From an uncultured Pseudomonadales bacterium (GTDB lineage: Bacteria; Patescibacteriota; Microgenomatia; UBA1400; PJMF01), in assembly GCA_964648715.1 (NCBI GenBank), contig CAZYNM010000002.1, positions 25,056-89,055 on the forward strand: 64,000 bases of DNA, written 5' to 3'. Both the position numbers and the translations under genes were made by a program. Under the pieces are notes generated by a model. That model worked only from the letters and a program-made list of their open reading frames with translations, was not told where the DNA came from and did no database searches. This document shows, piece by piece, positions 17,843 to 61,622 of the stretch (its first letter is position 1; every line of letters begins with the position of its first letter).

Positions 17843-17848
17843 AGCTAA

Positions 17849-18517: not shown

Positions 18518-18540
18518 GCTCCACACATCATTGTCTCATT

Positions 18541-19630: not shown

Positions 19631-19697
19631 TGTTTCTTTCCTTTAACGCAAAGAGGAGGGGACACCCCTCCTCATATGCGTTTAGTGTTCGTTAGTA

Positions 19698-38884: not shown

Positions 38885-41005
38885 CTAAGGTGCCGGAGTA
38901 GGAGAAGGCTTTGCACCTTCAAGCTCACCGCTGAGGGTGGTTTTCTTATCAGCTGGCACATCATTACTCACAGGCGCTTTGATGACGCTGCTCTCATTCT
39001 CTCCAAGACTTTGATCTAAAATTGAGGGAGGTTTCTTACCGTCGCTTGTTTGTTGTTGCTGAGTCGTCCCAGCTTTCTTTGCAGCATTCTTTTCATCTTC
39101 TGCAACCAATTTATTGATCTGCTCAAGCTCTGCACTAACCTTCTTATATTCCTCTGTCTCAGTTCCAGTTGTGCTCTGCAAGAGGGTTACTAGAGTAGCA
39201 TAGGATGCTTGAGCTTCTTTATGCGCGCCCAACTGCATATAAGCATATCCAAGATTGTAGTAAGCATTGGGAAAATCCTGCTTTATATCAACAGCTTGCT
39301 GGAATATGGAAGCGGCTTGTTGATATTGCTTTTGGTCAAGAAAGATACCTCCTAATGCAATTCTTAAACCTGGATTGGTGGGGTCATTGTTAATTGCTTG
39401 AATATAGGATTGTACGGCAAATTGATCCGCTTGATCTACAGCTCCAATCATGTTTTTGTATACTTGTGCGAGTACTGCCCAATTTTCAACATCGAGCGAA
39501 TCAAGCAGTGTTGCAGAACGTGCTTCACGAACTGCCTGTTGAAGAAGTTGCGCAATCTGTTGCTTTTCCGCATCTGTTACATCTGTTTTACTCGAGAGTG
39601 ATGTCGCGATAAACATATTTGTCAAAGCATAATCGCGTCGCAAGACGTCAATGTATGGATTGAGTTGAATAGCCTTTTGTTGCAATTCATAGGTCTTCAC
39701 CACATCTTGAGCAGCGAGTGCTCTTGATGCTTGCATAACTGTGTAGCTTGCCAAAGCAAACTTACTGAAATGGTAACCACTGAACAGCACACCAATTAAA
39801 AGTACCCCACTCATAATAAATACGGGGAATGAGGCTTTCTGAGCAGTGGCTCCATGTACATGAGGAGAGTCAACTTCCATGGTCATTGTTAAGGCTTGGA
39901 GCTTGAAAACAGGAAGCTTCTCACTTTGTGCAGCAAAAAGAGCAGTTATCAATACAGCCTGAACAATAACTATACTCAGCGTAGTAGGGAATAAAAGTTG
40001 GAGTACAAACAGAGCTGCTACCATAGCTGCCACAGCTCTTGATGTACCTGTGTAAGCTTGGAACATACGAACACTCTGCCATGCAACTAAAGTCCATGTG
40101 GCAAGTCCGAAGAAGCCCATCGTTACAAGTAGCGTAAATGGGACGTTGCTTGCTTGTGAGAAAGGTACATTCCAAGTGCTGAGTGCGTTCAACCAAATTG
40201 GTTTAAATCGCAAATACAAATTTGAATATGATGATGCACCACCACCAATAAGTGCTGCTTTTGGTGAACGTATGGTGTCAAGTGCAATAGACCAGCTGCC
40301 TGTCCACGAAGCAGTAGTGACGGCACCAGGTTTTCCAGGTAATACTGTCCACAAATGGAGGACAATTCCCACAACAAGTATGGGAGTAACTGCGAGCATC
40401 CATTTACTAATATGTTTGTGAGAAATCGCATCTACAGCAATACCAATCATAGCAATGATCAGAATTTGCAAAGCAAAGAAGCTACTTCCTGCAAGACTAA
40501 ACCCAGTAGCACCTGTTGTGGGAATTGTGACACCGAAGAGTGCATTAAGTAATTGAACTGGTCCATAGCCAATCATTTGTGCTGCCAATGCAACAGTAAG
40601 TACAACACCAATCGCGCCAAGCATTGGAAGCACTTTCTTGGCTAAGCCGGAACTCGCTACACTTCCACCTAAAAGGCTCATGATGACCAAAGCCATATAT
40701 GCGCCACCAAATCCCAACACTGCCTCTACAGGATAATTATTGGTGAAAAATGTAGATGCGGTAGCTGCAAGCCCAAACAAAAAGAGTGGCAAAGTAAGAG
40801 GTGAGATCTTAACCTCAATAGTTTTTTTGCTGAGGGTGTAAAAAATATATACTATCGCAGTAAGGAGTGTGCCAACTACAAAAAAAGCATACTTAGAAAA
40901 GAAGACAAAGTTATCAAAAAGAGGAACAACTGCCAACACACCCAAGACAAGCGTTGTGAGCAACACACTATCAATTGTTTTCTTGAGCATGTTTGTGGTA
41001 ACCAT
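38885..41005 (-). CDS. Polytopic membrane protein (>=10 TM helices) with C-terminal TPR repeats; O-antigen-ligase/Wzy-like architecture
   Basis: N-terminal 450 aa are continuous TM helices. C-terminal region has TPR-like repeats (AYYNLGYAYMQLGAHKEAQASY; WAVLAQVYKNMIGA...) and a Lys/Pro-rich tail. Confidence 0.5.
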   Translation of the reverse strand: MVTTNMLKKTIDSVLLTTLVLGVLAVVPLFDNFVFFSKYAFFVVGTLLTAIVYIFYTLSKKTIEVKISPLTLPLFLFGLAATASTFFTNNYPVEAVLGFGGAYMALVIMSLLGGSVASSGLAKKVLPMLGAIGVVLTVALAAQMIGYGPVQLLNALFGVTIPTTGATGFSLAGSSFFALQILIIAMIGIAVDAISHKHISKWMLAVTPILVVGIVLHLWTVLPGKPGAVTTASWTGSWSIALDTIRSPKAALIGGGASSYSNLYLRFKPIWLNALSTWNVPFSQASNVPFTLLVTMGFFGLATWTLVAWQSVRMFQAYTGTSRAVAAMVAALFVLQLLFPTTLSIVIVQAVLITALFAAQSEKLPVFKLQALTMTMEVDSPHVHGATAQKASFPVFIMSGVLLIGVLFSGYHFSKFALASYTVMQASRALAAQDVVKTYELQQKAIQLNPYIDVLRRDYALTNMFIATSLSSKTDVTDAEKQQIAQLLQQAVREARSATLLDSLDVENWAVLAQVYKNMIGAVDQADQFAVQSYIQAINNDPTNPGLRIALGGIFLDQKQYQQAASIFQQAVDIKQDFPNAYYNLGYAYMQLGAHKEAQASYATLVTLLQSTTGTETEEYKKVSAELEQINKLVAEDEKNAAKKAGTTQQQQTSDGKKPPSILDQSLGENESSVIKAPVSNDVPADKKTTLSGELEGAKPSPTPAP

Positions 41006-41099
41006 AGAGTGCCTCTCAGGTTGAAGAAAGTACCATTCATTTAAGCAAATGTGAGCCCCTCTTGTAAAGAGATAAATATGCTACACTTTGTAGGTAGCA

Positions 41100-41585
41100 A
41101 TGAAAAAAAAGACATCAGCTGGCATGACGCTCATTGAAGTTATGATTGTAGTAGGCACTCTTGTTGTCCTGATGACTGCACTTATGGTGAGCATTCTTCC
41201 TGCACTAGCTAAAGGAAGAGATGGAAGAAGAAAAGCAGATTTAGAACGTATTTCCAAAGCCCTTGAAGAGTATTATAACGATAATGGGGGATATCCAGCA
41301 TCCTTAGATACCTGTGGGAGGGGCACTGTCTTAGCTCCGTACCTCGCTGATGTGCCTTGTGATCCCATTACGAAAGAGGAGTACACCTATTATGTAAATA
41401 CTGATGATCAATGTACTCCTTTGTGTAGAAGTTACACCCTTTACACAAACCTTGATAATAAAAAAGATCCTCAAATTGAAAAAATAGGCTGTGGGGGGGC
41501 AAGTGGATGTTATACATCTGCACCACCCTCAAATACTAAATATAATTATGGTGTTGCATCTTCTAATAGATCGGTGAAACGGTAA
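41100..41585 (+). CDS. Type IV pilin / pseudopilin (prepilin-type N-terminal cleavage/methylation domain)
   Basis: MKKKTSAGMTLIEVMIVVGTLVVLMTAL: G|MTLIE class III signal peptide; Cys-rich C-terminal domain. Confidence 0.75.
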   Translation: MKKKTSAGMTLIEVMIVVGTLVVLMTALMVSILPALAKGRDGRRKADLERISKALEEYYNDNGGYPASLDTCGRGTVLAPYLADVPCDPITKEEYTYYVNTDDQCTPLCRSYTLYTNLDNKKDPQIEKIGCGGASGCYTSAPPSNTKYNYGVASSNRSVKR

Positions 41586-41608
41586 ACAAAATGTGCTACA
41601 ACTATAGT

Positions 41609-42142
41609 ATGCGGACAAAACGCGGTTTTACCCTTATAGAACTGTTGGTAGCTATAACCATACTGGGTGTTTTGGTATCGGTGGGATTAGGGGCTTTTGC
41701 TTCTTCCCAGAAGAAGGCTCGAGATTCTAAAAGAAAAACTGATCTAGAAAGCATCTCAAGAGCAATGGAGTTGTACTATAACGACTGCGGTGCATATCCC
41801 ACTACAAGTGGCTCGGGTGATATTGTTGGTTGTGGAAATACTGGAAGCTGTAATACGAGCGCTGCCACATGTACCCCCGGACAACAATGGATACGAAATG
41901 GCATTATTTATATGCAGGAACTACCTTCTGACCCACTTGGCAATTACTATTATGATTGGTCATCTAGTGGCTATGTTTTGTATGCTCGTTTAGAGAACAC
42001 CAGTGATAGCGCTGTGCCTCATTCTGGAGGCACGCCACTTGGATATAAAGATATTTGGTGCAGAGTCAGCCCTCATGATCAATGTAATTATGGATTAGCT
42101 GGTCCAGGGGCAAGCGTGAGCACGCTAACAGTGGTTGACTAG
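41609..42142 (+). CDS. Type IV pilin / pseudopilin
   Basis: MRTKRGFTLIELLVAITILGVLVSVGL (G|FTLIE). Track ORF starts 18 nt earlier (MCYNYS...), but the ATG at 41609 gives the canonical short leader. Confidence 0.75.
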   Translation: MRTKRGFTLIELLVAITILGVLVSVGLGAFASSQKKARDSKRKTDLESISRAMELYYNDCGAYPTTSGSGDIVGCGNTGSCNTSAATCTPGQQWIRNGIIYMQELPSDPLGNYYYDWSSSGYVLYARLENTSDSAVPHSGGTPLGYKDIWCRVSPHDQCNYGLAGPGASVSTLTVVD

Positions 42143-42145
42143 ATT

Positions 42146-42577
42146 ATGAAAAAGATAACGCAACTGAATGGCTTTACACTAATCGAGGTGCTCGTAGTAA
42201 TTTCTATCATTGGTATTCTTGCCTCGTTTATTTTACCCAACCTACTGGGAATGCGGCAGCGTGCAGCTGACACCAAAACAAAAAATAATATGAATCAGTT
42301 TAAGAACGCGCTCAGATTATATTATAATGATAACCAAGCATATCCAGATGTGGCAAGCGAAACAGACTGCAACGCAGCCTCATTAACATCTGCCCTGGCT
42401 CCTTATATCGACACAGATAATATTCCACTCGGTTGCAAGTATCTTGATCAAGACTCAGCAAATGGCTTTTATGCCTATGTTTCACTTGCTACAAGTGCAG
42501 GTACTGAGGATACAGAAAGTGCTGACCAATGTGGAAGAACGTCAATTGACCAGAGATATTATGTATGCGGCAAGTAG
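42146..42577 (+). CDS. Type IV pilin / pseudopilin
   Basis: MKKITQLNGFTLIEVLVVISIIGILASFILPNL (G|FTLIE). Confidence 0.75.
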   Translation: MKKITQLNGFTLIEVLVVISIIGILASFILPNLLGMRQRAADTKTKNNMNQFKNALRLYYNDNQAYPDVASETDCNAASLTSALAPYIDTDNIPLGCKYLDQDSANGFYAYVSLATSAGTEDTESADQCGRTSIDQRYYVCGK

Positions 42578-43047
42578 GTTTTACTCTCATTGAGATACTT
42601 GTGGTTGTAGCAGTAATTGGTGTATTGACTGCTGTTCTTCTTGTTAATATCACAAGCATACGTGAACGTGCTGCTGATACTAAAAAAATTCAAAAACTCG
42701 AGCAGTTTATGTTTGCGCTGCGTATGTATTACAACGATAATAAAAAATATCCTGAGACAGGTGGGCCGCAAAATGCGCGTAATATTACTGGAGCATCAAG
42801 CATATATATGAAGAAGTACTTTGGTGAGCTTATGTATTACAATCGTTTGCTTTCTCATAGGAATGCAGCAAATGAAATGCAGTTTGATGCAGTTGTGGCC
42901 TGCATAGTCGTTTCCAGTTCAAGCCAAAAAGAGATTGAGAGGTCGCAGGCAAAGTGCTTCCCCAATGGCATAGATGCAAACCAGGACAACGAACTTACTA
43001 TCTACAACTGCCGTAAGGCCACTTGCTACTGTGACTGTATCTTCTAG
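42565..43047 (+). CDS. Type IV pilin / pseudopilin
   Basis: MRQVGFTLIEILVVVAVIGVLTAVLLVNI (G|FTLIE). Overlaps the preceding pilin gene by 13 nt; Cys-rich C-terminus. Confidence 0.7.
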   Translation: MRQVGFTLIEILVVVAVIGVLTAVLLVNITSIRERAADTKKIQKLEQFMFALRMYYNDNKKYPETGGPQNARNITGASSIYMKKYFGELMYYNRLLSHRNAANEMQFDAVVACIVVSSSSQKEIERSQAKCFPNGIDANQDNELTIYNCRKATCYCDCIF

Positions 43048-43058
43048 TCTCACTCAGC

Positions 43059-44387
43059 TTATGGAGTTACTATCAAAGGAAAGTATAGGTAGTTTTTTTC
43101 TTCAACTGGTTTTTCTATCTCAGCAGGAAGTTGTGTGTGTGTATCAGGAGAACCATCTCCATTGGTATCGATAGCGATAGGAATATTAACATCAGCACCG
43201 TGGGACTGCTCTATAGCAGCGGCAACTTCACGTGTATTGAGACTTATGCTCCCAGAAGAAAATGAATCTGGACTGATGAAACTTTTGGTAGTTGTACCAT
43301 CCGCAAATCCTACGCTAAGTGTGAAGCCGTCTGCGTCGCCAGTTGTGGCTGCCACAGTGATATCATAGTCTGCGGTTGCAAGTGAGGTGGCCTCGGCTGC
43401 GCCCACTAATTCGTTGGATGAGAGCGATAGCTCTCCAGAAGTCTCAAAGTCTGACACTTCAACATGTGTGCCATCTGGACTGCTATTAAGACCAATGGTA
43501 TCACTCAACACAACCCCAGATATATCTAAGTTAATAGGAAGTGGAGTCGGGGATGATTGATCTGGAGTCGGAGTGATTATTGGTGTAGGCGTCAAATCTG
43601 GAGTTTCAGTAGGTGCTGTTGTTGCAGTTGACTCTGGGTTTTGAGTAGGCGCTTGAGTTGCAGTTGGCTCTTCTGTTGCAGTGGCTGCTGGAGTAGCTGT
43701 GGGCTCATCATCGTATGCACCAGCGCCTCTGAGCTGGAGTGCTGATTGGTGAGTGGTAGAAACCTCAACAGACGAAGTTAAATGTTCGCCTTCTTCATGG
43801 GTAAGTACTATTTTATTAAATAATTGATTGTTGGTATCAACAGTGTATACAGCTTTTTCTACCATATTTGGGCCAGTGGTAGAGAGGCTGGCAGTTTGAC
43901 CATCAAGAAAGGCCTCTGAGACTGATCCTTCTATGCCTGTTGTCGACATGCTGTCTTGTTGTGGATCCTCTTTGTGGATAGTTATTGGTTCATCCGCAAC
44001 TGGTTGATTATTCCTGTCATACACAGTGACTGAAATAATCGAGTACGTATCTTGTGAATGGTCTACTGTGGGAGTAGCTGTGGGCTCAGCTGGTGTAGGG
44101 GTAGCCGTGACATCTGCTTGTTGTTCACTTGTAGCGGTTGCAGTAGGTGCTTCTGGGGTGGGTGTGGAGACAGTAGGGGTTGGGGTCGCGGCTTCTGTTG
44201 TTGGTGTATCGGTAGGGTCAGGAATTGTTTGGTTAAATTCACGTCCTATGCTAGACCGATTGTTGATCACATTGAGCGCAGCATGAGCAACGGAGGGTTG
44301 ATCAGCACCATAGCTCATTCCTACGAACGCCATAAGAGCAGAAAGCAGCCCTGCCCCGATAAGTTGTTCACGCCGCAACATGCTCAT
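43059..44387 (-). CDS. Secreted Thr/Pro/Ala/Glu-rich protein (signal peptide, PT-linker repeats)
   Basis: MSMLRREQLIGAGLLSALMAFVGMSYGADQPSVAHA signal peptide; multiple TPTPT/ATATEEPTAT linkers. Starts 45 nt downstream of the giant gene stop on the same strand. Confidence 0.5.
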   Translation of the reverse strand: MSMLRREQLIGAGLLSALMAFVGMSYGADQPSVAHAALNVINNRSSIGREFNQTIPDPTDTPTTEAATPTPTVSTPTPEAPTATATSEQQADVTATPTPAEPTATPTVDHSQDTYSIISVTVYDRNNQPVADEPITIHKEDPQQDSMSTTGIEGSVSEAFLDGQTASLSTTGPNMVEKAVYTVDTNNQLFNKIVLTHEEGEHLTSSVEVSTTHQSALQLRGAGAYDDEPTATPAATATEEPTATQAPTQNPESTATTAPTETPDLTPTPIITPTPDQSSPTPLPINLDISGVVLSDTIGLNSSPDGTHVEVSDFETSGELSLSSNELVGAAEATSLATADYDITVAATTGDADGFTLSVGFADGTTTKSFISPDSFSSGSISLNTREVAAAIEQSHGADVNIPIAIDTNGDGSPDTHTQLPAEIEKPVEEKNYLYFPLIVTP

Positions 44388-44431
44388 AAAACCTCCGCCA
44401 TACTAGTACCTAGTATAGTACACTTTTTATA

Positions 44432-53400: not shown

Positions 53401-56400
53401 TGCCAGCACTCCTATTTAAGATCAAGGAATGAAGATTAGAGGCAGCAGCATTTTCAGAAAGATAATAGGTGCCACTACCATCCAGACTTACTCTGTTGCC
53501 GGTACTATTGAGTGTTAAGTAACCATTTGTGTCAGTGCTAACGTTGGCATATACAGCACCACTGTAATTTAAGCGCAACTGGGTACCTGTTGATTCAATG
53601 GTTGTTCGAGCATTAGATGTAGTTGTGGTACCTATACCTACGTTTCCTGCTAGAACTCCTGCCGTTGTAGTGTTACCAGGTTCAACGTAGTAGTTGGCGT
53701 CCTCTACGTCAAGGTAGCGACGGGCATAGGTGTAGCCGCTCAAGTTTGTTGTCCCATTGCCTTTGCCTGTAACTCGGAATCCAGCAGATGCGGTAGATGT
53801 ACCACCCACAGTCACGTCTACAACTTCTCCCCATTCATTACGAGGATGATAGACGTTATCTGTGCGGGCCCATAGACCTGAAGTGGTACAGTTGCCTGAG
53901 CTGTCGCAAACATCATTCCCAGCTTGTTTAAAGGATGTTGCATACACAGTAGCCCATCGAAGTGCATTAGAACCTAAATCATAGCTATTGTTTGTTTGCG
54001 GACCAATGGATCCATTCACTTGGAGCTTGAAAGTTGAGGGATTCGTTGTCCCTATACCCACATTGCCCAAGTTACTGACGCGCACCTGTTCTGTTCCTCC
54101 AGTCGATATAGCGAAGTTACCAGAGGAGGGCAGGAAACTGCCCGTTGTTGCATCACTCGAGAAGGTTTGTGCCGGTGAACCCGCGTTGCCATTGGCTGTT
54201 TGAAGTATTCTGCCTGAAGTGAGAACTGTTGTTCCACCAATTGCAAAGTTATCACCGGTAGCGATGGACAGAGTGTCGGTACCGCTTCGGTAGAGATCAA
54301 CGTCACTTCCAAAACCGATGCCACCTGTTACAGCAGTGTGGTCGGCGAGTTCAATCTTGTTGTTAATGGTGCTCGTGCCAAATCCAATGTTGCCAGCGAA
54401 GTATGATGGAGTATTTGTACCTGCTGAGTAAATTGCATAATCTAATGAAGATCCTTTGGCTAATGAGTCAATATAAATACCGTAATTGTTTGTGATGGCT
54501 CCTGCACCTGTGGGATCAGTGATTCTTATCCCATAAACATCAGTGATGGTTGCACCAGAACCAACAGCCAAGGACTCATAATATGCATGGTATGAACTGT
54601 TGGTATTATTGACTGTTGCCTGGGAATTAACTCCGTATACTGTAGTGGAGCTATCAGTGAAAGTTGGCGATGAATAGATACCAACTCTACTTAAATAGCC
54701 TGCGCTGCCTGCTGCGATTCTTGATGCAGCATTATTGGCAAGAAATGAGCCTGTAATAGTAAGTTGTTGAGAAGGGGTTGCGCCAATTCCCACACTACCT
54801 GCAAATACACCAGCAGTTCCAGTATTACCCGGCTCAACGTAATAGTTAGTGTCATCAATATCAAGATAGCGTTTTGCATACACATATCCAGGCAGATTTG
54901 TTGTACCATTTCCTTGACCAGTCACTCTGAACTCAGCAGAGAGAGTAGCTGTTCCTCCAATGAGTAAGTCTGCAACCTGTCCAAACTCATTGCGAGGGTG
55001 GAGTGCATTTTGATTGTTTTGCCATAAACCAGCGTTACTACAGTTGCCTGAGCTGTCACACACTTGATAGGCAGTCCCTGATTGGTACTGGTACACTGAA
55101 GCACCATAGATAGAACCATCTGCTTCTATGTTACTCTGTACATACAGATCAGCACCAGCGGTAGGGTTGGTAAACGTAAATCCAGTTGTGGCTACGTAGG
55201 TATCACCAGCCACCTGCAATCTCCCGTTACTTGTTGTGGTGGTACCTATGGAAATGTTTCCAGCACCATCTATACGCATTCGTTCGGTGAGAGCTGTGTT
55301 GTTACTGGTATATAGACCTAAAGTATCAGCAGCTGCATAGCCAACAGCAGCACCATCTGCAGCAAGTGTAGATGCACCACCTGGACCAAAAGAGATTGCA
55401 GCTTGTCCACTTCCAGCACCGTCTCTCCCAATCTGGAAACGAGGGTTGGCCTCTGCCTGGTAGTATTCGGCAAATGCGCCATTTGCGAACCTAAAGTTTC
55501 CACTTGATACATCAAAAACTTGTAGTTTGGCGAGTGGTGCAGTAGTTCCAACACCAAGATTTCCGTTAGAAAGGAGAGATACCTTTGCGGCAAGACCATT
55601 GTCACCACCCGGTGAGGTCTGGAAGTCAAGTCTTCCACCATTGAGCATATCAATTGTACTGAATGTAGTACTGCGTAGTACCAATGAGCCAGAAGCAGAT
55701 GCATCACCTGCCACATCAAGCTTGGCACGAACATTTGCAGCAGTAACACCTATACCTAGATTGCCAGCGGCATTGCCACCTGTAAGGGTCATGCCTACTG
55801 CATTGTTGGTGACAAAGTTGATGCTGCCAAAAAGTCCTCCAGCGGCGGTGTAGTTATTTACGATATTTGTATCAATATATGTGCCATAGCGGAAGGGCGA
55901 GGTACTACTATTGTTTTGTTCAAAATCACTGGTATTTGTCCCCGCAGTTACTCTACTAATAGTACTACCACCACCGTTCACAGGTGCACTCTGGATGTTT
56001 GAGAGTACTAAGTTTGTGCCTGTTGCAAGTGAATCATAGACATTGAGTCGAGCGCCAGGACTCGTACTGTTGATACCAATATTGCCGTTATTACTAATGT
56101 AGAGACGTGAGTTTGTTACTGCATCTCCACCAACCGATGTCCGGAAGTTAATACTGCCACCATTAAATGCAGTGTACGTTGTAGTGGGGTTAGAGCCTGT
56201 TGGAGAAGCGATGGCCAAGTTGCCTGATATACTAGCCGTTGGTGTTCCACTCATGACGTTCATGAATGCAAACTTTGCTGATGTTGTTGCATTTCCACCA
56301 ATCAGCACATCAGAGTTGTTTGTATAGGGAGAGGAAGGAGAAATAGCACCATTAACGTACTGCCAGAAATTGCCTATAGCAGAACAATTGCCAGACGTAT

Positions 56401-59400
56401 CACAGACTTGGTTATTTCCTTGGTAGATGGTTGTGCCATAAATATTGTTCCATCTCAGGGCATTTGATCCAAGGTCATAGGTGGCGCTTGCTTGTGGTCC
56501 AACACCCCCCTGCACTTGTACTTTGAAACCTGTAGCAGCTGTGGTGCCAATTCCCAAATTGCCTCCAGCTGAAACAAGTGTTGAGGTTCCGCTTGATGTG
56601 TTGAGAACATTATTGCCCGCACCGGTGGTAACAGAGTCATAAAAGTAAAAGCCAGAAGTTGCATCGGTATCGACATGCGCATACGTCGCATTCTGTGCAC
56701 CAATACGGACAAACTTTCCAGAAGATACTAAGTTCAGTGGATACTGTGATGTGGCACCTAAGTCGACATGAAGCGCATAGGCTGGTGCAGTCGTCCCAAT
56801 ACCAACACTTCCTCCAACTTGTCTGATGGCTGTTGCACTATAGTACGCAGTAGGAGCAGCAACACTTGAAGTAGAGGTTGATGCAGTAAAGCTATCTGTG
56901 TGGATGCCTTCTTGTCTAATGACAACATACGCTGTGCCAGCTGTGGAACCTGCCGTGCGGCGTATTCTCAAAGATGTAGTCCCGTTATTGACGTTTACAT
57001 CAAGATCAAAATCATTTGATGAGTACACACCTGTGTCACTGATAGGTTGTGCAATCACCCAGGTATTAGTTGTTTCGTTATATGCAATAGGGATGTTGTA
57101 TTCTTTTGCTACAGAAAACGAGCCGCTTGGTACCGTGATTGAAACCCAGAGAGAAGCCCCACCATTTGTAAAGCTAAAAGAACCAATGTCTACAACATCA
57201 TTCACCACTGTTGGCATGGTGCGAGTCATAGTCCGGGTTCGAGCATTGTTCTGTAGAATATCGCCCGCGACTTGGAGTGTTTCTGTAGGGTTAATGGTCC
57301 CTATGCCAAAATTACCATTACTAAGTAACGTTAGTTTACTCACCAGGCCAGCGTCACCACCAGGTGATGTTTGAATGTCGAGGCGGTTACCGTTGAGGAT
57401 ATCAATTGTTGATGGGTTGGTGCCTCTTAACACAAGAGAGCCAGAAGCGGATGCATCTCCTATAACATCAAGCTTCGCTCTGGAGACTGTAGTACCAATA
57501 CCAACGTTCCCTTCTACAAGTAGTCCTTGAGTAGGAGGAGTAGTTGTTAGGTATGTTCCAGATCCAATTCCAACACCTCCCGCAGCATTGATTGCCATTC
57601 GTACATTACTATACCCGCTGGTATAAAAGCGTAGATTGGTTGCTTGATCGGTCCCCATTTCGAATACACCAGAGTTTCTGGGGAAGTAAGAGAAAATTGG
57701 ATTGGTGGTACTGTAGGTATCATTGTAGATTTGGGCGGCATAGGGTGTTTCACTGGGTGCATGAATGCCCAGTGCAGTAACAGATCCGGTAGCTTTTACT
57801 TCTAGTGTATGGGTGGGAATCGTCGTTCCTATACCAATATTGCCGTTATTATTGATGTAGAGACGTGAGTTTGTTACTGCATCACCACCAACTGATGTGC
57901 GGAAGTTAAAGGTACCGCCATTATAGGCAGTGAACGTAGTAGCAGGATTGGAACCAGTTGGAGACGCAATAGCAAGGGTACCTGAGATGGAGGCAGTGGG
58001 TGTGCCACTATTTACATTGATAAAAGCGAACTTTGCTGCACTTGTTGCATTGCTACCTAAGAGGAGATCTGCTACACCCGCATATTCAGCTCTTGGGTGT
58101 AGCGCGTTCTGAGTATTATCCCACCACCCAATGTCATACAGAGTATTCCCATCTACCCATTGGGTGGCACTACCGGTGCTTTTGAGCACATACCCATTTG
58201 TTCCGACTGAGTTGGTGCTGTCATACAATCCACCTACTAGACGCATATTGTTCTGGACATGCAGAGACTGAGTAGGGCCAGTTGTTCCTATGCCCAAGCT
58301 TCCTTCAAAAATCGCATTGTTTGCGCCCGGATTAGTTGAGTAGTAGGTACTTCCAAAAGAAAGCCCTCCGGCTGCACTTATCTGCATTCTGTTTGTATTG
58401 TTGGTATAGAAGCGCAATGGGGAGTTTGAACTTAAACCAAGATATCCATCAGAGGAAGTTACACCCTGCTCAAGTGTATGGGTGGTATTAGTAACTGTTT
58501 CTTGTACCGTTCCCGAAGTCCCGTAGAGAACGAGCTTTGTGTTGGGATTTGTGGTGCCCAATCCAAGATTACCGTTATTTAGTATCGAAACTTTACTCGC
58601 AAGGCCCGCATCGCCCCCTGGGGAGGTATTGATATCAAGCCGCTGCCCATCAAGTACATCGATTGAAGAAGTTCCTGTTCTGAGTACAAAACTTCCAGAT
58701 ACAGATGCGTCTCCTGCTGCATCAAGAGTAGCTCTTGTACTCGTTGTTCCAATGCCGATATTGCCCGTGGCAGAAATAACACCCAAGGTACTTCCTGCGC
58801 TTGATTGCCATTTAACAATATCCGCTGTCGCGCTGGGGCCAGCTTTGAGGGTGAGGGCAGTGCCTCCAGCATAGGTTGCAGATAGCGTCGCTCCTGGTGC
58901 ACCGATATAATCTCGAGCAATGATTTGTCCGAGACCGTCTGGGTCAAGCACAATGTTGCCGTTTGATCCAGATGTCGTCTGCAGGTTGAGCGTCGTTCCC
59001 TCGAGAGTGAGCGAAGTGCTAGAAGCCTTTAATTTGGGCGTTGCTCCACCGAGTACTACCTCACCACTGTTATTCATAACAACCACCGTATTTGCGGTGG
59101 CGGGGTCTGCAGGTGGAAATCCTTGAAGTGTTTCAGAGTTGAGTGCGTATGCGACACTTTTAATGCTTTGACGGGGAGAGAGAGTCTCAGCACCTACTTC
59201 AACCTGTAACCATACGTTTGCATTCTCACTAAAGACGCTGGAGGCAATCTCTGTTCCACAATCTGAGCCAAGACCGGAAGAAAAAATGCCGTCTTGGTCG
59301 GGCGTAATGCTGCATGTGCCAGAATCCCATAACTGTGTGCCGCTTCCAGTCCCGGGACCTGAATCATAGAGACGGAACCTAAAGTTTGTAGCTGCTGTGA

Positions 59401-60328
59401 TAGGGTTTTGTGCTGTATCAGTCAAACGGCCTTGAAAAGAAAGCGTTCTATTGGGTCGCGTAAGTGTACTGGGGAATGCGAGTGGCTTATCTGGAGTAAC
59501 AATAAACTGTTGATAGCCAAAATAACTAAATGAAATCAAAAAGAGTAATATCATCGCTACATTTGCATAGCGAGTAATAAAAGAATCACCCTTCTTTTGA
59601 AGAGACTGCTGTAATAATCGTGCGTTTTCTTTGATGATTTGAGTGTATTCTTGTGATTTATTTGCCTTTTGTTTGTGTGTTAGATCTCCCTGAGGAGAAA
59701 GAAGCGCACTTAGTGAGAACCGCTTGCGTAGGCCACTGATAACTCGATCTCCTCTTAAGTCATGAGGTTGCTCATCATGACTGAGATTCTCTAACCAAGA
59801 ATAAGTACCGGCTGTGACAACACCTAGTGTTTCTAGCCATAAGCTAAATTGGGCTAGGCTCACTAATTTGCGTTTAATTGTAGCTCCCGCCAAGTTGCTG
59901 CTTCTTTGAGAGCGGATAAACTCGAGGACTTTTTGTTTAGTTAGGGTTTTTGTTAGTTCTGCTGATTTAGAAAATTCAATAAATTGATTGATATCACTGC
60001 GATAATTTTTTATGGTTGATGTTGAGCAGTTGGCAGACTTAAGTGCTAATAGGTATTCTGAGAGGAAGACATCCATCTGGGAAAGGGAAAATGAACTCAC
60101 AAACTGAGTCACACTGGTACACGCATTTTCAGAGAAGGAATGCTTCTTGGCTAGCTCTTGAATACAAGATGCTGGCTCTACAAAATCTGTTACAGAAACT
60201 AGTGAACGTAGTACAGTAACGAGAAGCGCATGTGCTTCTTCAAAACGAGAATCATCAACACCTATGGTCTTCATGAATGTAGAAAACAGTTTGCGGACGC
60301 TGGTGATATACAGTTCCTGGGCAGTCAT
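44432..60328 (-). CDS. Giant (5298-aa) repeat-rich fibrous cell-surface protein: N-terminal cytoplasmic integrase-SAM-like domain, single TM helix, >4900-aa extracellular tail-fibre-like repeat region, C-terminal coiled-coil-like segment
   Basis: A single uninterrupted 15,897-nt ORF. TM helix ANVAMILLFLISFSYFGYQQFIV (aa ~255-277). At least 25 copies of GN(I/V/L)GIGTTxP...L(D/H/Q)V. Several module families each repeated 3-5 times (e.g. VAGDASASGSLVLRNTTISTIDMLNGGRLDFQTSPGGDNGLAAK...; PRNEFxxVxDxxIGGTxTxSAxFRVTGxGNGTTNLxGYxYAxRYLDxDxxNYYxEPGNTxTAG). Recurrent QVCDxSGNCS Cys pairs. Confidence 0.85.
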   Translation of the reverse strand: MTAQELYITSVRKLFSTFMKTIGVDDSRFEEAHALLVTVLRSLVSVTDFVEPASCIQELAKKHSFSENACTSVTQFVSSFSLSQMDVFLSEYLLALKSANCSTSTIKNYRSDINQFIEFSKSAELTKTLTKQKVLEFIRSQRSSNLAGATIKRKLVSLAQFSLWLETLGVVTAGTYSWLENLSHDEQPHDLRGDRVISGLRKRFSLSALLSPQGDLTHKQKANKSQEYTQIIKENARLLQQSLQKKGDSFITRYANVAMILLFLISFSYFGYQQFIVTPDKPLAFPSTLTRPNRTLSFQGRLTDTAQNPITAATNFRFRLYDSGPGTGSGTQLWDSGTCSITPDQDGIFSSGLGSDCGTEIASSVFSENANVWLQVEVGAETLSPRQSIKSVAYALNSETLQGFPPADPATANTVVVMNNSGEVVLGGATPKLKASSTSLTLEGTTLNLQTTSGSNGNIVLDPDGLGQIIARDYIGAPGATLSATYAGGTALTLKAGPSATADIVKWQSSAGSTLGVISATGNIGIGTTSTRATLDAAGDASVSGSFVLRTGTSSIDVLDGQRLDINTSPGGDAGLASKVSILNNGNLGLGTTNPNTKLVLYGTSGTVQETVTNTTHTLEQGVTSSDGYLGLSSNSPLRFYTNNTNRMQISAAGGLSFGSTYYSTNPGANNAIFEGSLGIGTTGPTQSLHVQNNMRLVGGLYDSTNSVGTNGYVLKSTGSATQWVDGNTLYDIGWWDNTQNALHPRAEYAGVADLLLGSNATSAAKFAFINVNSGTPTASISGTLAIASPTGSNPATTFTAYNGGTFNFRTSVGGDAVTNSRLYINNNGNIGIGTTIPTHTLEVKATGSVTALGIHAPSETPYAAQIYNDTYSTTNPIFSYFPRNSGVFEMGTDQATNLRFYTSGYSNVRMAINAAGGVGIGSGTYLTTTPPTQGLLVEGNVGIGTTVSRAKLDVIGDASASGSLVLRGTNPSTIDILNGNRLDIQTSPGGDAGLVSKLTLLSNGNFGIGTINPTETLQVAGDILQNNARTRTMTRTMPTVVNDVVDIGSFSFTNGGASLWVSITVPSGSFSVAKEYNIPIAYNETTNTWVIAQPISDTGVYSSNDFDLDVNVNNGTTSLRIRRTAGSTAGTAYVVIRQEGIHTDSFTASTSTSSVAAPTAYYSATAIRQVGGSVGIGTTAPAYALHVDLGATSQYPLNLVSSGKFVRIGAQNATYAHVDTDATSGFYFYDSVTTGAGNNVLNTSSGTSTLVSAGGNLGIGTTAATGFKVQVQGGVGPQASATYDLGSNALRWNNIYGTTIYQGNNQVCDTSGNCSAIGNFWQYVNGAISPSSPYTNNSDVLIGGNATTSAKFAFMNVMSGTPTASISGNLAIASPTGSNPTTTYTAFNGGSINFRTSVGGDAVTNSRLYISNNGNIGINSTSPGARLNVYDSLATGTNLVLSNIQSAPVNGGGSTISRVTAGTNTSDFEQNNSSTSPFRYGTYIDTNIVNNYTAAGGLFGSINFVTNNAVGMTLTGGNAAGNLGIGVTAANVRAKLDVAGDASASGSLVLRSTTFSTIDMLNGGRLDFQTSPGGDNGLAAKVSLLSNGNLGVGTTAPLAKLQVFDVSSGNFRFANGAFAEYYQAEANPRFQIGRDGAGSGQAAISFGPGGASTLAADGAAVGYAAADTLGLYTSNNTALTERMRIDGAGNISIGTTTTSNGRLQVAGDTYVATTGFTFTNPTAGADLYVQSNIEADGSIYGASVYQYQSGTAYQVCDSSGNCSNAGLWQNNQNALHPRNEFGQVADLLIGGTATLSAEFRVTGQGNGTTNLPGYVYAKRYLDIDDTNYYVEPGNTGTAGVFAGSVGIGATPSQQLTITGSFLANNAASRIAAGSAGYLSRVGIYSSPTFTDSSTTVYGVNSQATVNNTNSSYHAYYESLAVGSGATITDVYGIRITDPTGAGAITNNYGIYIDSLAKGSSLDYAIYSAGTNTPSYFAGNIGFGTSTINNKIELADHTAVTGGIGFGSDVDLYRSGTDTLSIATGDNFAIGGTTVLTSGRILQTANGNAGSPAQTFSSDATTGSFLPSSGNFAISTGGTEQVRVSNLGNVGIGTTNPSTFKLQVNGSIGPQTNNSYDLGSNALRWATVYATSFKQAGNDVCDSSGNCTTSGLWARTDNVYHPRNEWGEVVDVTVGGTSTASAGFRVTGKGNGTTNLSGYTYARRYLDVEDANYYVEPGNTTTAGVLAGNVGIGTTTTSNARTTIESTGTQLRLNYSGAVYANVSTDTNGYLTLNSTGNRVSLDGSGTYYLSENAAASNLHSLILNRSAGTGYTTPDIYGASGGIVIGGLSGATGTVAINTSGTATPTLISSGGSIGVGTNSPGQTLDVQSTGTASIRSFGPTNPYLRAQDSTNNVITKLQALDTFGYAGTESNHSFGIISNNTQRIYVDAAGNVGINDGSASSFKLQVGGDVGPSATTTYNLGSNSLRWNNIYGTALYQGNYQVCDLSGNCSNAGLWQNNQNAFHPRNEFASVADVLIGGTSTASAKFAFTNIAAGSPTASISGNLALTVPTGSTPGSTLDILDDGTLNIRQSPGGNAGLTSRIFIASNGNIGIGNITTPAQSLDISGNLRVRGNLITDSGDATRLTLGSTTTLSNSTTTLSGTSTITASSLATFTTNATLGMTSTTALNLGNSAVITLGASATGGTLNGSSGSDGDLVIQGTSHTTRTSSYVNIQPSGGNVGIGTTTPSSVLEIAGTTLPAFEVAGTQLMRYKYGPQTYNVANAPMVLKYADSTGGGYGTASFMIYFKARDDSNIQLDEVWYFGTQAQYNSNGYAYTMQRISGTKKVRAYEVTNSGANLEIQWTLTDDDRAAAAGNFDDSVEVTVMEVLSGHGEGHRGTFSVVDWATKSMSGSEINNGGNAHATFGGTGTNWFMGSVGIGTTAPTQGLHVAGNARITGALYDASNSPGSNGYIFTSTGTGTSWINPETLLDSGWWDNTENVLHPRNEYGAVSDLAIGGTSTVAATFRVTGSGNGGSNLSGYVYAKRYIDIDSQNYYIEPGLTSTSGLFAGSVGIGTTTASQKLTVAGSSNTENYVGIGDTSERLKIGYGHATGVVDNVLPAQIIVDSTGHLILSSRTNSASGIQFYTNAGTDGVERMRIDTAGNVGIGTTIANAKLDVAGDASASGSLVLRNTTISTIDMLNGGRLDFQTSPGGDNGLAAKLTLLNNGNIGIGSIAPIAKLDVNGNTNITGNLDVSSGVDVSGADITGGTGVQIDFADEVTDKIYWYSTNYGTGIESSTLTNWSASTFRWRVGGTSASSGTAELELNGTALQPATNNGLNLGTASLKYGTGYFNTSVDSPLYTYAGNLDISATGANAVRFNTNGSLKWSVLSGGQLESNGASTIRTSTGNLTLATNAGNGHIILSPNGTGNVGVGSTTPTAKLDVAGDASASGSLVLRNTTVSTIDMLNGGRLDFQTSPGGDNGLAAKLTLLNNGNTGIGTTGPTNTLDVNGTLRVRTYGAGTTTAVCKDGSGVLTDCSGSFVTGSGVTNRVARWTGTGSIGTGVLWDDGTNVGVGDTTPSGLLTVGSSDNFVVDSNGRLRLNSATESFGSYVLSFDTGATSFNSAGSIYGIKGTVSNSNTGNVTAGYFYAQSTGSGTIPTAIGVDTGIKLNNAGGTISTAVGLNANSPAVTAGAITNAVGAYIWPQDVSGVGTGYGILQAGSADINTFAGNVGIGTTGASYKLDTQVAAGSANIFRAGQTGVSNGLTITTNGTSLDYNVLSGNTTFDASAVANVGSIYLRNSTNYSASRNNYLINLLGSMAGRLINRNAEMLDGTTGYTVYDNSAGGKTTLSAVASTTAPNTSGQALRISYNGTGTPNSNPNPGYGGFYASIPVCGGTNNGVNTYCYREGNRYVVRIWANIPSGRSLYYANNAYGTGGNYQWLTSQAGTGNWQEYIIVQTIGTGGTLSTIGFWYVDSGSNAAFTWDVASVHVTGVDESPSVETASNLNVGYYQGKNLAYGELTTSQGAFLALSGGNVGIGTTTANNGLHIRKDETAGSPWTGQLYIEPVSNDAHAAISLKTTMTGTDRVWSIIAGNGTPSTNLRIYDSTAGADRINIDSNGYVGINTTNPLTTFNVVGAAKSASDTNSVTTSNASIYGTGNRTAGNGAALAFASAANTDGTNIWDQARILGAADNSSNGDASGRMYLQTRYYTGAAWDWRNNLVLLSSGNVGVGTTSTSGRLQVDSGSSSEVALVLKQSVSANYPDIFCQNNVGSSTLCEFTSGMFNNGGTLYNAGSLIQRGTISNDTAAHLTIAGGTSGRTYFSGNVGIGTTVPNTNLNVYGANTTFQIASTTTAQRGMYYSESNNNLYIGGSSTQDGNINVLNLSAVTAVTLNSAGDSYFNGGNLGIGTTSTVGKLDIRGATRSGTHTNTQTMYVTGTMQSGQTGGGTGNIEFRHDNATQGIGFGYNTIYQAGTNTNQDLNFLSKGTSPITLNAYAYSSGNVGVGTTGPTAKLHVYGSSTTFQVSNTTTTQVGMWYGEGGNDLYIGGGSTQDGDINIKDLSGNIDVKLSANSATVSYFNSGANVGIGATSASQKLDVAGQIQFDIDTANDTTIGVCKNTADGTSTATEFRECNGTPSDIAEFYRAEAGLRPGDVVSLTEISGVPTLVSSSSIQGASVFGVVSTFPVGQFGKPLGHELYSSTENPVAIGLAGRVPVRVNLSNGPISAGDALTESSTPGVAAKAIRPGKIIGYAIESFNENSPIVSTGTREQEALRANNIAKFNAEPIDPTDQGEGKILLYVHAGYYYPNMIFGSEGELVFNGTGQSNYTITAQQNGTVLSNIIAAAQVMSAKMKTSFLQTRELFVSERASVANLDATTLTTQVATVSGSLHAEIATVDQLSTQDLSVAGTLTATGQSQLGVLLAESASISGSLTAQTASISGELIAQNLTISGSTRLAQIEAQQAQLMAVQATTAELFDATVSGTLYAQNIADLDAKIASAIQQPNFIDLLTGNEPTPPPAANPISVYEPVSSAGYTPVNPTFFAEHEGVSLVTGDVLIDSAAVFVRKYLEVNGVAYVTKALGIGETLQIGAGTIITDGVIAYTGTSPATTVLQIQPSGTGKVEILAGLITLQNGTATIAGDLTIAGKTKTNTLLTNLIQPADFGNPFQVQVAGISTQSGELKKSRFEIINELGTPVATISAEGKANFAGGIGVGSEEIAVPSVASGSSVTVSAQKTSGKAKVPAGTSEITIESESITDTSLIYVTPVGSTQNQVLYVKSQTTENISTSEKEGKFVVGFDAAVSGDVSFNWWIVN
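49900..50066. repeat. Intragenic direct repeat copy A (~165 bp) within the giant gene
   Basis: tcccgttgttgagtagggtaagtttggcggcaagaccattatcaccacccggtgaggtttggaagtcaagtcttccaccattgagcatatcaattgtactga... About 96% identical to copy B at 50700..50866. Confidence 0.8.
50700..50866. repeat. Intragenic direct repeat copy B (~165 bp)
   Basis: Near-identical to copy A (differences such as gagtaggg/gaggaggg, gacggtgg/gatggtgg, accagtg/actagtg); 800 bp downstream of copy A. Confidence 0.8.
55585..55730. repeat. Intragenic direct repeat copy C (~145 bp, ~90% identity to A/B)
   Basis: cctttgcggcaagaccattgtcaccacccggtgaggtctggaagtcaagtcttccaccattgagcatatcaattgtactgaatgtagtactgcgtagtaccaatgagccagaagcagatgcatcacctgccacatcaag. 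More diverged copies occur near 57340 and 58600. Confidence 0.7.
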
Positions 60329-60863
60329 GATGAATATTTTTCTTGCAGCTCTTGTCTTGTGTCTAATCCAGATTGATTAGACTATTTTTTCTCAACAAGT
60401 TACAGTGTACGGATTTCCTCAAGTACAAGTCAAGAAGTCATACATAGTCAAAAAACGCCAGTTTTTCACATTGCAAGTTTCTCTGGTATCAATGCAGAAA
60501 AAAGAACACTTTTCACCTTTTTCATGAATATCAATCAATATCAAACAAAGCTAACTATGAAAAAAATTGAAGCAAAGAGTTGCATAAATGATGTATTGTT
60601 GACTAATAATCTAGGCTGTTGAAATGTGTTTTTTTTTGAAGTATAGTAATCAAAAATTAATAATACATATAAAAAACATCTGCGCATGCCTTTAAAAGTT
60701 GTTTTTTATCCACAGCTTAATCACCATTTATTAAAAAGTAGATGGATTCGTGTTGAATGCACAAGTTTGCCGCAACTCATGTGTCATTTTGAGTAGTTGA
60801 TATTTATGAATAAAAAGAAGTAAATATACTAAATTCGAGTTATTTTCGCATATATACTAGAGT

Positions 60864-61622
60864 ATGGCCCTAAAACAAAACACATTAAAAGTGCTTCTCG
60901 TACTTGCTGCAACAAGTTCTACAGAGGCTCAAGGCTTACCAAGCCCCATAATTAAAGCGCTTCTCCCAGATATAACCATAACGGGAACTAGATCTCTCTT
61001 GGTTCTCTTAGTGCGTAAGAAACTTATTTACAAACGTAGGGTGTTTGGAACTACTACGTTTCACATTTCTGAGCAAGGACAGCGCAGCTTAAATACAGCA
61101 TTTCCGGCTTTACATGCAACCTGGCACGATTGGGACGGTAGCTGGGTTGTAGTGGTCTTTTTAGACGCGCCTAAAGGTGACTCACAGTTTCGTTACCTAC
61201 GTAAACTCATTCTTAGTCATGCGGGTATGCAAGTAACTAGAGGTATGTATGCAAAAGCGGGAGGGTTTGCTCCTGAAGTATTGGCTCAGCTACAGAACAC
61301 ATACCTGGGGCATGTTATTATTTTTTCGGTCTTTAAGTGGATTCAAGGCTTTGATAAGCCTGTAGTATTTGAATACTACAACCTACCAGATAAGGCAACG
61401 GCCTTGTCTGGAATTAGCAATGAAGTTAATGAACTGCTAAATATTATCAATAGAGAAAAAAGATTGACTGAGAAACAAAAAATTAATATAGTTACTCTTG
61501 TTGATCGGTTTATCGATTTCTTGAGGGAAGATCCCGGATTTATTCATTATTATTTTCCAGGCACACCAGATGAAGGTGAGTTACTAGCAAATATCGGCAC
61601 ACTGTTATCCTTATGGGACTAA
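60864..61622 (+). CDS. PaaX-like winged-helix transcriptional regulator (tentative)
   Basis: WDGSWVVVVF (PaaX WDGxW), YLRKLILSHAGMQVTRGMYAKAG (PaaX LRxxLxxxGFGxLxxGVWISP-like) and C-terminal LREDPGFIHYYFPGTPDEGELL (PaaX DPxLPxxLLPxxWPG-like). Stand-alone gene between AT-rich spacers. Confidence 0.4.
   Translation: MALKQNTLKVLLVLAATSSTEAQGLPSPIIKALLPDITITGTRSLLVLLVRKKLIYKRRVFGTTTFHISEQGQRSLNTAFPALHATWHDWDGSWVVVVFLDAPKGDSQFRYLRKLILSHAGMQVTRGMYAKAGGFAPEVLAQLQNTYLGHVIIFSVFKWIQGFDKPVVFEYYNLPDKATALSGISNEVNELLNIINREKRLTEKQKINIVTLVDRFIDFLREDPGFIHYYFPGTPDEGELLANIGTLLSLWD

Follow-up and report, generated by a model that had tools for sequence, protein, structure and literature searches.

We know of no host-contact mechanism for Microgenomates-type Patescibacteria, a very large uncultivated group. 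Among the systems to which their surface genes can be compared, PglL and TfpO are O-oligosaccharyltransferases of the Wzy_C family that glycosylate pilins, and WsaB glycosylates the S-layer; tfpO is encoded directly beside pilin genes. Fibres of the mosaic adhesive trimer (MAT) type are, to our knowledge, known so far from the predator Bdellovibrio. These phage-like fibres are displayed on the predator surface and comprise S74 and non-S74 subfamilies (Caulton et al. 2024, PMC10769870). In an array, the MAT fibre Bd2439 bound O-antigen glycans, and the same work raises a possible interplay of fibres and type IV pili (PMC10769870). In cultivated Saccharibacteria, type IV pili and adhesins are essential for epibiotic growth (PMC10633639, PMC11665869). 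Here, we analyzed positions 38885-60328 of a 64-kb window (the whole stretch of DNA under study), which carry genes for a giant fibre protein, four pilins, and a polytopic TPR membrane protein referred to below as WaaL-like. The scan for open reading frames (ORFs) and the translations were rerun, and all seven ORFs that the original prediction had placed here were recovered with the same coordinates and in the same order.

Judged from sequence, we consider with moderate confidence that the locus encodes a host-contact surface module, in which the giant fibre and a WaaL-like glycan ligase or docking protein would form the core pair and the pilin trio would be a frequent insert. By analogy with the systems above, a joint role in host attachment is plausible. 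Exact-product look-ups were made for seven homologues of the WaaL-like protein at 88% to 34% identity, and a metagenome scan with the family alignment added 80 loci; once near-identical loci were collapsed, 67 non-redundant lineages remained. Loci L004 to L008 all had the giant fibre gene, an optional small gene, three to four pilin genes on the opposite strand, the WaaL-like gene, and then Obg, M23/LysM, and Rho on the opposite strand, followed in most of them by Sortase, VirD4, and RadA. The order fibre, pilins, WaaL-like was kept in these loci, in L094, and in most of the 67. The arrangement is not due to chance, since it is seen again even in relatives whose TPR protein is no more than 34% identical, and the synteny comparison suggested with the original prediction found the genes not scattered in relatives. 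Features were counted as present/testable among lineages with at least 33% WaaL-like identity and enough flank: pilins lay on the 5′ side in 28/32, the fibre C-terminus was found in 17/21, and an ORF of at least 1,000 amino acids (aa) of any kind occupied the fibre position in 20/21. L094 encodes a fibre of 7,697 aa and matches the arrangement of the window to either side of it, in the order Big_13 protein, 252-aa gene, fibre, pilins, WaaL-like, Obg, M23, and Rho.

The WaaL-like protein (706 aa) has 11 transmembrane helices in aa 1-424, a TPR domain at aa ~425-645, and a disordered K/Q/P/T-rich tail. Sequence comparisons led to the TPR part: Pfam matched TPR families only, both here (TPR_11, 43 bits) and in 36 close homologues, and the family profile found only TPR proteins among PDB sequences. 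A profile of the membrane domain found nothing meaningful among PDB sequences, an exact-product look-up of the 706-aa protein returned no record, and a single-sequence search of contigs with it gave TPR-repeat noise only. An AlphaFold model of the whole protein (pLDDT 81.5) likewise gave a fold search dominated by TPR matches. When the membrane domain (residues 1-425) was modelled alone (pLDDT 77, pTM 0.81), its only confident PDB match was the O-antigen ligase WaaL (7TPG; E = 2.7e-3, probability 1.00, 424 aligned columns), and the next match had a probability of 0.20. A distant homologue, P0052, aligns with the window protein at E = 1.9e-33 along 84% of its length and scores Pfam Wzy_C at 45.2 bits (cut-off 31.7). 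Its Wzy_C stretch maps to window aa ~183-305, where the invariant residues of the family fall; W238, G254, G256, Y260, P269, N273, and W278, together with the near-invariant D243 and R246, lie in loop 223-289. Among 38 homologues, the mean number of K plus R was 1.7-5.0 in interhelical or terminal segments L0, L2, L4, L6, L8, and L10 versus 0-0.4 in L1, L3, L5, and L9. This positive-inside pattern unambiguously predicts a cytoplasmic N-terminus, places loop 223-289 outside, and has the eleventh helix put the TPR domain outside. At the level of the modelled fold, the description "Wzy-like" is reasonable, and the protein is more precisely a candidate WaaL-fold protein with a TPR domain predicted to face outward. 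A classical WaaL is out of the question, since the organism presumably lacks a lipid A-core. In L042 and L054/L055, the polytopic TPR gene is present as two copies in tandem, surrounded by pilin genes on both strands.

The giant protein is a single uninterrupted ORF of 5,298 codons, of which ~5,020 residues follow a lone transmembrane helix (aa 249-277) flanked by a K/R-rich N-terminal side. It is predicted to be oriented N-in/C-out by a signal-anchor helix, with no separate signal peptide. On the side that the predicted topology makes cytoplasmic, aa 89-165 match the Pfam families Phage_int_SAM_1 (28.6 bits) and SAM_4 (28.3 bits), and the same SAM-like domain occurs in the giant ORFs of L005, L008, P0047, and L094. 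Partial N-terminal homologues are widely annotated "site-specific integrase, partial"; the SAM-like domain explains this label of fibre 5′ fragments, which is an annotation artefact. Possible roles of the cytoplasmic part (aa 1-248, 59585-60328) with its SAM-like domain include signalling, nucleoid tethering, or protein docking. The outer part is rich in G, T, S, A, and N and holds 26 GN(V/I)GIGT motifs and several CX5C pairs, and the gene contains internal DNA repeats up to 91% identical over 212 nt. The protein matched PHROG tail fibre families (E = 9.5e-18 and 4e-15) and, by phmmer, Bdellovibrio Bd2133 (8OND; E = 2.7e-7) and 8OML (E = 3.1e-4). The ~5,000 external residues are predicted to consist of beta-helix repeats of the MAT or phage-tail-fibre type, and we infer that the fibre is trimeric. 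Scaled roughly from Bd2133 (150 Å per 370 aa; PMC10769870), it would be about 200 nm long. The window protein has no Peptidase_S74 domain by Pfam and no SDxRLK motif; positional homologues in relatives carry Peptidase_S74. In the giant ORFs of L007, L008, L022, and L056, the SDxRLK motif is internal, 620-750 aa before the C-terminus, and autoproteolysis there would free a large C-terminal fragment. No LPXTG-type sortase signal was found in the giant protein, in the PT-rich protein encoded next to it, or in the neighbours.

The C-terminal fragment freed by autoproteolysis would include a terminal domain of ~75 aa, …F.VG(F/L)D…D(V/I).F(N/K)WW(I/V)(V/I)(N/K/E) at the stop, which is shared by the giant ORFs adjoining the WaaL-like gene (the FNWWIVN domain). 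A total of 37 distinct copies were counted in 954 kb of related loci, in addition to the one in the window. Pfam assigns copies in relatives to K1-lyase_C (PF24146), a domain from the C-termini of phage depolymerases, with scores of 27-29 bits, but makes no such assignment for the copy in the window. A HMMER scan of 1.84 billion representatives recovered 979 clusters with the domain at E ≤ 1e-3, the proteins reaching a length of 7,697 aa; of the best 150 clusters, 149 have it at the very C-terminus. Large ORFs with other ends were noted in L042 (…F.FEN.NFE, upstream ORF), L020, and L047. Lineages with 25-34% WaaL-like identity have a short FNWWIVN protein of 390-460 aa encoded beside the WaaL-like gene, 16-700 nt away on either strand; those scanned (L070 and L085) combine an N-terminal transmembrane helix and TPR repeats with the same C-terminal domain. 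Short FNWWIVN proteins were found in L057, L066, L070, L071, L081, L082, L085, L086, L088, and L090, some of which also hold a giant protein with the same terminus. The domain was also used as an anchor in its own right, and the support obtained in this way was mixed. From it, the whole arrangement was recovered in L094, and the WaaL-like gene was found 2.1 kb downstream in L093, past an Abi/toxin insertion. In L091, a pilin follows before the contig ends. L092 has three pilins, an unrelated Gly-rich secreted protein with a (TP)n linker encoded beside them, and glycan-synthesis genes.

In the proposed mechanism, the fibre would project from the cell and recognize a host or prey surface, as Bdellovibrio MAT fibres do, and the pilins would rely for processing and assembly on a type IV pilus machine with genes at another site of the genome. 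At the outward side of the membrane, the WaaL-like protein would transfer a lipid-linked glycan onto Ser/Thr-rich surface proteins, as PglL and TfpO do on pilins; alternatively, its TPR repeats would dock the C-terminal domain of the fibre. An outward loop and TPR domain beside Ser/Thr-rich clients fit an O-oligosaccharyltransferase-like or docking role. Glycosylation or docking by the WaaL-like protein, and any cooperation with the pili, may be envisaged. A more specific proposal, which we consider improbable, is that the FNWWIVN domain is a recognition module for the WaaL-like/TPR protein: the TPR domain would capture it and the WaaL-type loop would join the fibre to a lipid-linked glycan or wall polymer, with the pilin trio as a second client. 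Given the internal S74 site in relatives, the coupled part could instead be the cleaved C-terminal fragment. If true, giant fibres of Patescibacteria would be sorted or anchored by a system that does not depend on sortase.

Several observations weigh against a module built on the fibre and a glycan ligase. Pfam Wzy_C (PF04932) was reached neither by the window protein (hits at E ≤ 1) nor by 36 close homologues (judged from the 25 families with the most matches among the 38 aligned members). The earlier description "Wzy-like/TPR" agrees with the WaaL 7TPG fold match and with the Wzy_C-positive P0052, but not with the Pfam result for the window protein. The fold match to 7TPG is itself modest (TM-score 0.42-0.44), which is support at the level of fold and not proof. 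The window has no glycan-synthesis genes except one cytidylyltransferase-like ORF, and no glycosyltransferase was detected in it; such genes lie near the module only in two distant loci, L092 and L093. The pilins of the window lie on the opposite strand between the fibre and WaaL-like genes, so the three cannot share a transcript, and PilB, PilC, PilM, PilT, and PilD are all missing from the 64-kb window (Pfam, non-nested ORFs of at least 120 aa). Locus L010 has pilins and the WaaL-like gene without a fibre, and L092 has the FNWWIVN domain and pilins with no WaaL-like gene within 8 kb. Finally, the housekeeping genes flanking the WaaL-like gene show a conservation that equals or exceeds that of the pilins and the fibre (Obg, 35/37; M23/LysM, 33/33; Rho, 28/28), and much of the conservation may be frozen collinearity without functional meaning. 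Since this flank is kept even better, collinearity alone is no evidence of a functional unit.

It is possible, if somewhat unlikely, that collinearity is the whole explanation: the locus would be a rarely broken origin-proximal segment in small, rearrangement-poor Microgenomates genomes, and its products would work independently, with the WaaL-like protein perhaps polymerizing or ligating a cell-wall glycopolymer and the pilins perhaps serving motility or DNA uptake. The retention in order of Obg, M23, and Rho (and of Sortase, VirD4, and RadA in closer loci) speaks for this explanation. It also accommodates the separate loss of components, namely the fibre in L010, the pilins in L056 and P0047, and the WaaL-like gene in L092, as well as an apparent relocation of M23-Rho in L081 and L084 to L090, which is accounted for by inversion of the WaaL-like gene alone. 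Three points beyond collinearity argue for a functional link. First, FNWWIVN and WaaL-like genes have operon-like spacing in several divergent lineages: the short genes of L057, L066, and L070 lie 16-40 nt from the WaaL-like gene on the same strand, lineages without pilins have the fibre gene directly preceding the WaaL-like gene on the same strand, and in P0047 the two overlap by 32 nt on the same strand, whereas Obg is always convergent with the WaaL-like gene. Second, the pilin cassette stays between the fibre and WaaL-like genes in either orientation, being on the same strand as both in L061 and L064. Third, the adjacency of FNWWIVN and WaaL-like genes persists at 25-32% identity, where Obg is present in only 3/10, and so outlasts it. 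The host-contact module with its fibre and WaaL-like core pair is the reading we prefer.

The components of the locus differ in how fast they change. Relative to L004, identity was 92% for M23, 88% for the WaaL-like protein, and 86% for Obg; it was 76% for pilin 1, 53-59% for pilins 2-4, and 59% for the PT-rich protein encoded between the pilins and the fibre. Within the fibre, the last 508 aa were 90% identical and the best mid-section patch was 82% identical, with 59% overall for aa 4192-5298. The exposed components thus appear to be the fastest-evolving ones, as expected of proteins facing hosts or phages. The GC content across the locus (0.42-0.47) is ordinary for the window (0.39-0.46 elsewhere), neither a tRNA nor a complete integrase is present in the window (where the SAM-like domain inside the giant ORF is the sole integrase-like signal), and all related loci with sufficient flanking sequence occupy the same chromosomal position. 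For these three reasons the locus is not a horizontally acquired island; it is a vertically inherited, origin-proximal, frozen core segment and not a mobile island.

These results bear on the form in which a host-binding role was originally proposed, namely that pili, giant fibre, and a secreted PT-rich linker protein are one integrated apparatus in a dedicated attachment island. We regard that version as unlikely. The clustering on which it was based is real and conserved, all the products are predicted to be extracytoplasmic, and an interplay of fibres and type IV pili has been raised for MAT fibres (PMC10769870). However, the conserved block continues into Obg, M23/LysM, and Rho, whose retention equals or exceeds that of the pilins and the fibre, and the window shows no hallmarks of an island or of transfer. 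Nor does the 64-kb window hold assembly machinery, and some lineages that retain the fibre and WaaL-like genes do without the pilins. The PT-rich protein is not a conserved part of the clustered module. It has 15.2% T and 8.8% P and a hydrophobic segment at aa 9-27, and it matched nothing in Pfam, NCBIfam, or PHROG. A homologue was found only in L004 (59% by tblastn), the relative with 88% identity in the WaaL-like protein, and its first 84 aa match L006. Elsewhere, the slot between the fibre gene and the pilins is empty (seven loci), holds single unrelated ORFs, or, in several loci, has received multi-gene insertions such as ATPase-like genes or an Abi/toxin insert. A conserved role in the module was rejected for the PT-rich protein on this distribution, and it is best described, from sequence, as a lineage-specific filler of a variable slot. 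In L013, L025, L027, L043, and L093, the slot 3′ of the fibre gene is an insertion hot spot, with ATPase-like genes, small paired ORFs, an AbiEii toxin, a 23S_rRNA_IVP-type gene, and a Y1 transposase among its contents.

As had been proposed, the four small ORFs can be assigned to the prepilin-type pilins or pseudopilins. Prepilin motifs are present in all four: a short basic leader ending in Gly, (F/M)TLIE with Glu5, and a hydrophobic helix, with the cleavage context G/MTLIE in pilin 1 and G/FTLIE in pilins 2-4 (the slash marks the cleavage site). Hidden Markov model (HMM) scores were above cut-off for pilins 2-4, both for N_methyl PF07963 (36, 28.4, and 24.9 bits, respectively; cut-off 21.2) and for TIGR02532 (34.6, 33.3, and 26.1 bits; cut-off 16.3); pilin 1 scored 20.2 bits for N_methyl, 1 bit under the cut-off. 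All four share a family-specific motif, ...YYND..(A/G/K)YP. Pilins of type IV secretion systems (VirB2 type) were considered and rejected, since these pilins are prepilin-type by HMM. Relatives normally hold three pilins that are orthologous position by position, with identities of 37-76% for pilin 1 (all relatives examined), 43-55% for pilin 2, and 37-53% for pilin 3. A fourth was found only in the window and in its closest relative, L004. Because of this restriction, its 48% identity to pilin 3 over 80 aa, and the fact that its best match is the third pilin in L005, L006, L007, and L008/L009 (though not in L010), pilin 4 is a recent tandem duplicate of pilin 3. By sequence, the genes form an ordered trio of distinct subunits and not a variation array. 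None of PilB, PilC, PilM, PilT, or PilD was listed within ±10 kb of related loci, and the complete Microgenomates genome Ch65 has pilins together with PilB, PilC, PilD, PilM, and PilT at one locus (PMC7143001). With no assembly genes in the window and another Microgenomates genome clustering its own, the trio looks orphan and would depend on machinery encoded elsewhere in the genome.

The same genes could instead form a short pseudopilus of a type II secretion-like or competence-like system that exports or displays the fibre or takes up DNA, and is not an adhesive pilus. The best NCBIfam match of all four pilins is the major pseudopilin GspG of type II secretion systems (34-57 bits; 34 bits for pilin 1 and 56.5 bits for pilin 3), pilin 2 also matches T2SSG at 31.8 bits, ComG-type matches occur as well, and three distinct ordered orthologues resemble a heteromeric set more than an antigenic-variation array. 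Nevertheless, every GspG score is below the cut-off of 88.85 bits, no pilin reaches any equivalog cut-off, and the 64-kb window has no secretion ATPase or platform gene nearby; moreover, with a signal-anchor helix of its own, the fibre would cross a single membrane without the help of a pseudopilus. We find a pseudopilus quite improbable. A prophage or tailocin remnant contributing the tail-fibre gene, to which the PHROG tail-fibre matches and the Peptidase_S74 and K1-lyase_C-type domains of relatives might point, is extremely improbable and was rejected, because the window has no capsid, terminase, baseplate, complete integrase, or other phage genes, the giant protein has a membrane anchor and a cytoplasmic domain, and relatives with an identity as low as 34% retain its gene in a fixed position between orf252 and Obg.

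The features of the proposed host-contact locus are collected in Table 1. The spacing of the pilin genes is operon-like (5 nt, 3 nt, and then an overlap of 13 nt), and the giant and PT-rich genes run in the same direction with 44 nt between them. Pilin 4 and the PT-rich gene meet tail to tail (stop at 43047 and stop codon at 43059-43061, respectively) across 11 nt (43048-43058), one fewer than the 12 bp given originally. A consensus promoter scan found no site within the spacer between the divergent WaaL-like/TPR and pilin 1 genes, promoter and terminator counts in 38.5-44.6 kb were not above those of shuffles, and an Rfam scan of 36-64 kb gave zero matches.

Table 1. Positions of genes, domains, and spacers at the fibre, pilin, and WaaL-like locus, in window coordinates
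Feature	Position	Strand	Basis
706-aa polytopic TPR protein, WaaL-like	38885-41005	-	ORF scan, Pfam
Divergent intergenic region (94 bp), WaaL-like/TPR gene versus pilin 1	41006-41099		
Pilin 1, 161 aa, leader MKKKTSAG/MTLIE	41100-41585	+	HMM matches
Pilin 2, 183 aa, leader ...RTKRG/FTLIE	41591-42142	+	HMM matches
Pilin 3, 143 aa, leader ...QLNG/FTLIE	42146-42577	+	HMM matches
Pilin 4, 160 aa, leader MRQVG/FTLIE	42565-43047	+	HMM matches
PT-rich protein, 442 aa, signal-peptide-like N-terminus	43059-44387	-	Composition, hydropathy
Giant fibre protein, 5,298 aa, uninterrupted single ORF	44432-60328	-	ORF scan
Giant protein, C-terminal domain (last ~85 aa), ...FVVGFD.....DVSFNWWIVN-stop	44435-44689	-	Copies in relatives
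Giant protein, transmembrane anchor, aa 249-277	59498-59584	-	Hydropathy scan
Giant protein, integrase SAM-like (core-binding type) domain, aa 89-165	59834-60064	-	Pfam
AT-rich intergenic region (535 bp) upstream of giant gene, divergent with orf252	60329-60863		
orf252, 252-aa conserved neighbour, divergent from giant gene	60864-61622	+	

Beyond the giant gene, the 60-62 kb bin that holds the 535-bp spacer has a GC content of 0.356. The product of orf252 had no family match at E ≤ 0.01 in Pfam, NCBIfam, or PHROG. Homologues sit at the corresponding position in L056 and in L010, the locus that lacks the fibre; the 252-aa gene of L094, compared by position only, has the same position and orientation and a weak PaaX_M match, and orf252 might be a regulator. 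Past it, at 62045-63955 (-), lies a gene for a 636-aa protein with Big_13 and CarboxypepD_reg-like Ig domains and several hydrophobic segments. L094 has a protein matching Big_13 and CarboxypepD_reg on the same side of its fibre gene, from which the conserved surface-protein neighbourhood may extend past the coordinates originally proposed. A row at 17366-20342 (-) comprises a signal peptidase S26/SipW-like gene, three unassigned ORFs, and a camelysin/TasA-like (Peptidase_M73) gene; it may be a TasA-type fibre cluster and a second surface-filament system of the window. Glycan-synthesis genes within a few kb of the fibre/pilin module in distant loci were GT2, DegT aminotransferase, and hexapeptide acetyltransferase genes at 8537-11820 of L092 and, near the fibre module, a GT2 gene at 11889-13134 of L093.

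The window also contains dnaA, dnaN, rnpA, yidC, and jag, which mark the chromosomal origin, as well as a DUF4012 protein, a sortase, and scattered parts of a type IV secretion system (PrgI-like, VirB4-like, and VirD4-like). The secretion parts (PrgI-like, VirB4/TraG P-loop, and VirD4/TrwB-like coupling protein) lie at 1418-5655 and 29881-32019, split around dnaA/dnaN. Type IV secretion genes adjoining dnaA are a described Microgenomates trait (bioRxiv 10.1101/2025.01.22.634366), and the match to this pattern supports a Patescibacteria/Microgenomates-type assignment. The sources of the homologues are named Pacebacteria, Woesebacteria, Microgenomates, and "Patescibacteria group", and from these names, the DUF4012 protein, and the secretion genes beside dnaA, the organism can be identified by its sequence as a bacterium of this type. 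The proteins of P0038/L008 (GCA_020632265.1, 1.08-Mb contig) are labelled "Pseudomonadales bacterium" at source, a label that is probably wrong since gene content and order match Patescibacteria loci.

Each component of the locus is of a known kind. What appears to be undescribed in the literature searched is the giant version of a MAT-like fibre with a transmembrane anchor and a SAM domain, the conserved FNWWIVN terminus of giant fibres, and the recurrent pairing of fibre, WaaL-like/TPR protein, and pilin trio across Microgenomates-type genomes; the searches found no description of this neighbourhood in Microgenomates. The question of host contact in these bacteria thereby gains a concrete, recurrent gene set, made up of a MAT-like giant fibre, a WaaL-like partner with a predicted outward TPR domain, and a pilin trio, and the FNWWIVN domain marks about a thousand such proteins. 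The locus also carries a caution, in that conserved gene order in small collinear genomes is weak evidence of shared function.

Compared with known systems, the giant fibre is closest to the Bdellovibrio MAT fibres (Bd2133 8OND and 8OML). Beta-helix units with ...ERMRIDT(A/S)GN(V/L)G(I/L)GT... align directly (E = 2.7e-7), both are phage-tail-fibre-like and belong to families with S74 and non-S74 members, and in both the distal parts are swappable on a more conserved frame; the maker of MAT fibres, Bdellovibrio, lives off other bacteria. However, at 5,298 aa versus ~1,000, the window protein has about five times the length, and its own transmembrane helix and cytoplasmic integrase-SAM-like domain replace the surface-binding domain found at the N-terminus of MAT fibres. 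At its very end it has a conserved domain where MAT fibres have a variable tip, and the S74 motif of its relatives is internal, 620-750 aa before the end. The membrane protein resembles WaaL, PglL, TfpO, and WsaB in being polytopic, in having WaaL as its best fold match, in its large external loop with invariant residues, and in having a distant homologue (P0052) that scores Wzy_C; its gene lies beside pilin genes, as tfpO does. It differs from them in that neither it nor its 36 close homologues match Pfam Wzy_C and in an extra eleventh transmembrane helix that would export a C-terminal TPR domain. The pilins share with type IV pilins and type II secretion pseudopilins (the GspG, PilA, and ComGC class) a basic leader ending in Gly, a Glu5 helix, N_methyl, TIGR02532, and T2SSG matches, and a tight operon. 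In contrast to the pilins of Ch65 (PMC7143001), they lie away from assembly genes, and they are set apart by the common ...YYND..(A/G/K)YP motif and by scores below every equivalog cut-off. The host-interaction genes of Saccharibacteria (type IV pili, adhesins, and type IV secretion systems, essential by Tn-seq; PMC10633639, PMC11623550) also come from Patescibacteria that combine pili with large surface proteins, and for both a part in epibiotic attachment is proposed. The window bacterium is of a different, Microgenomates-type class, in a lineage known from sequence alone, and is likened to Saccharibacteria by kind of gene and not by homology.

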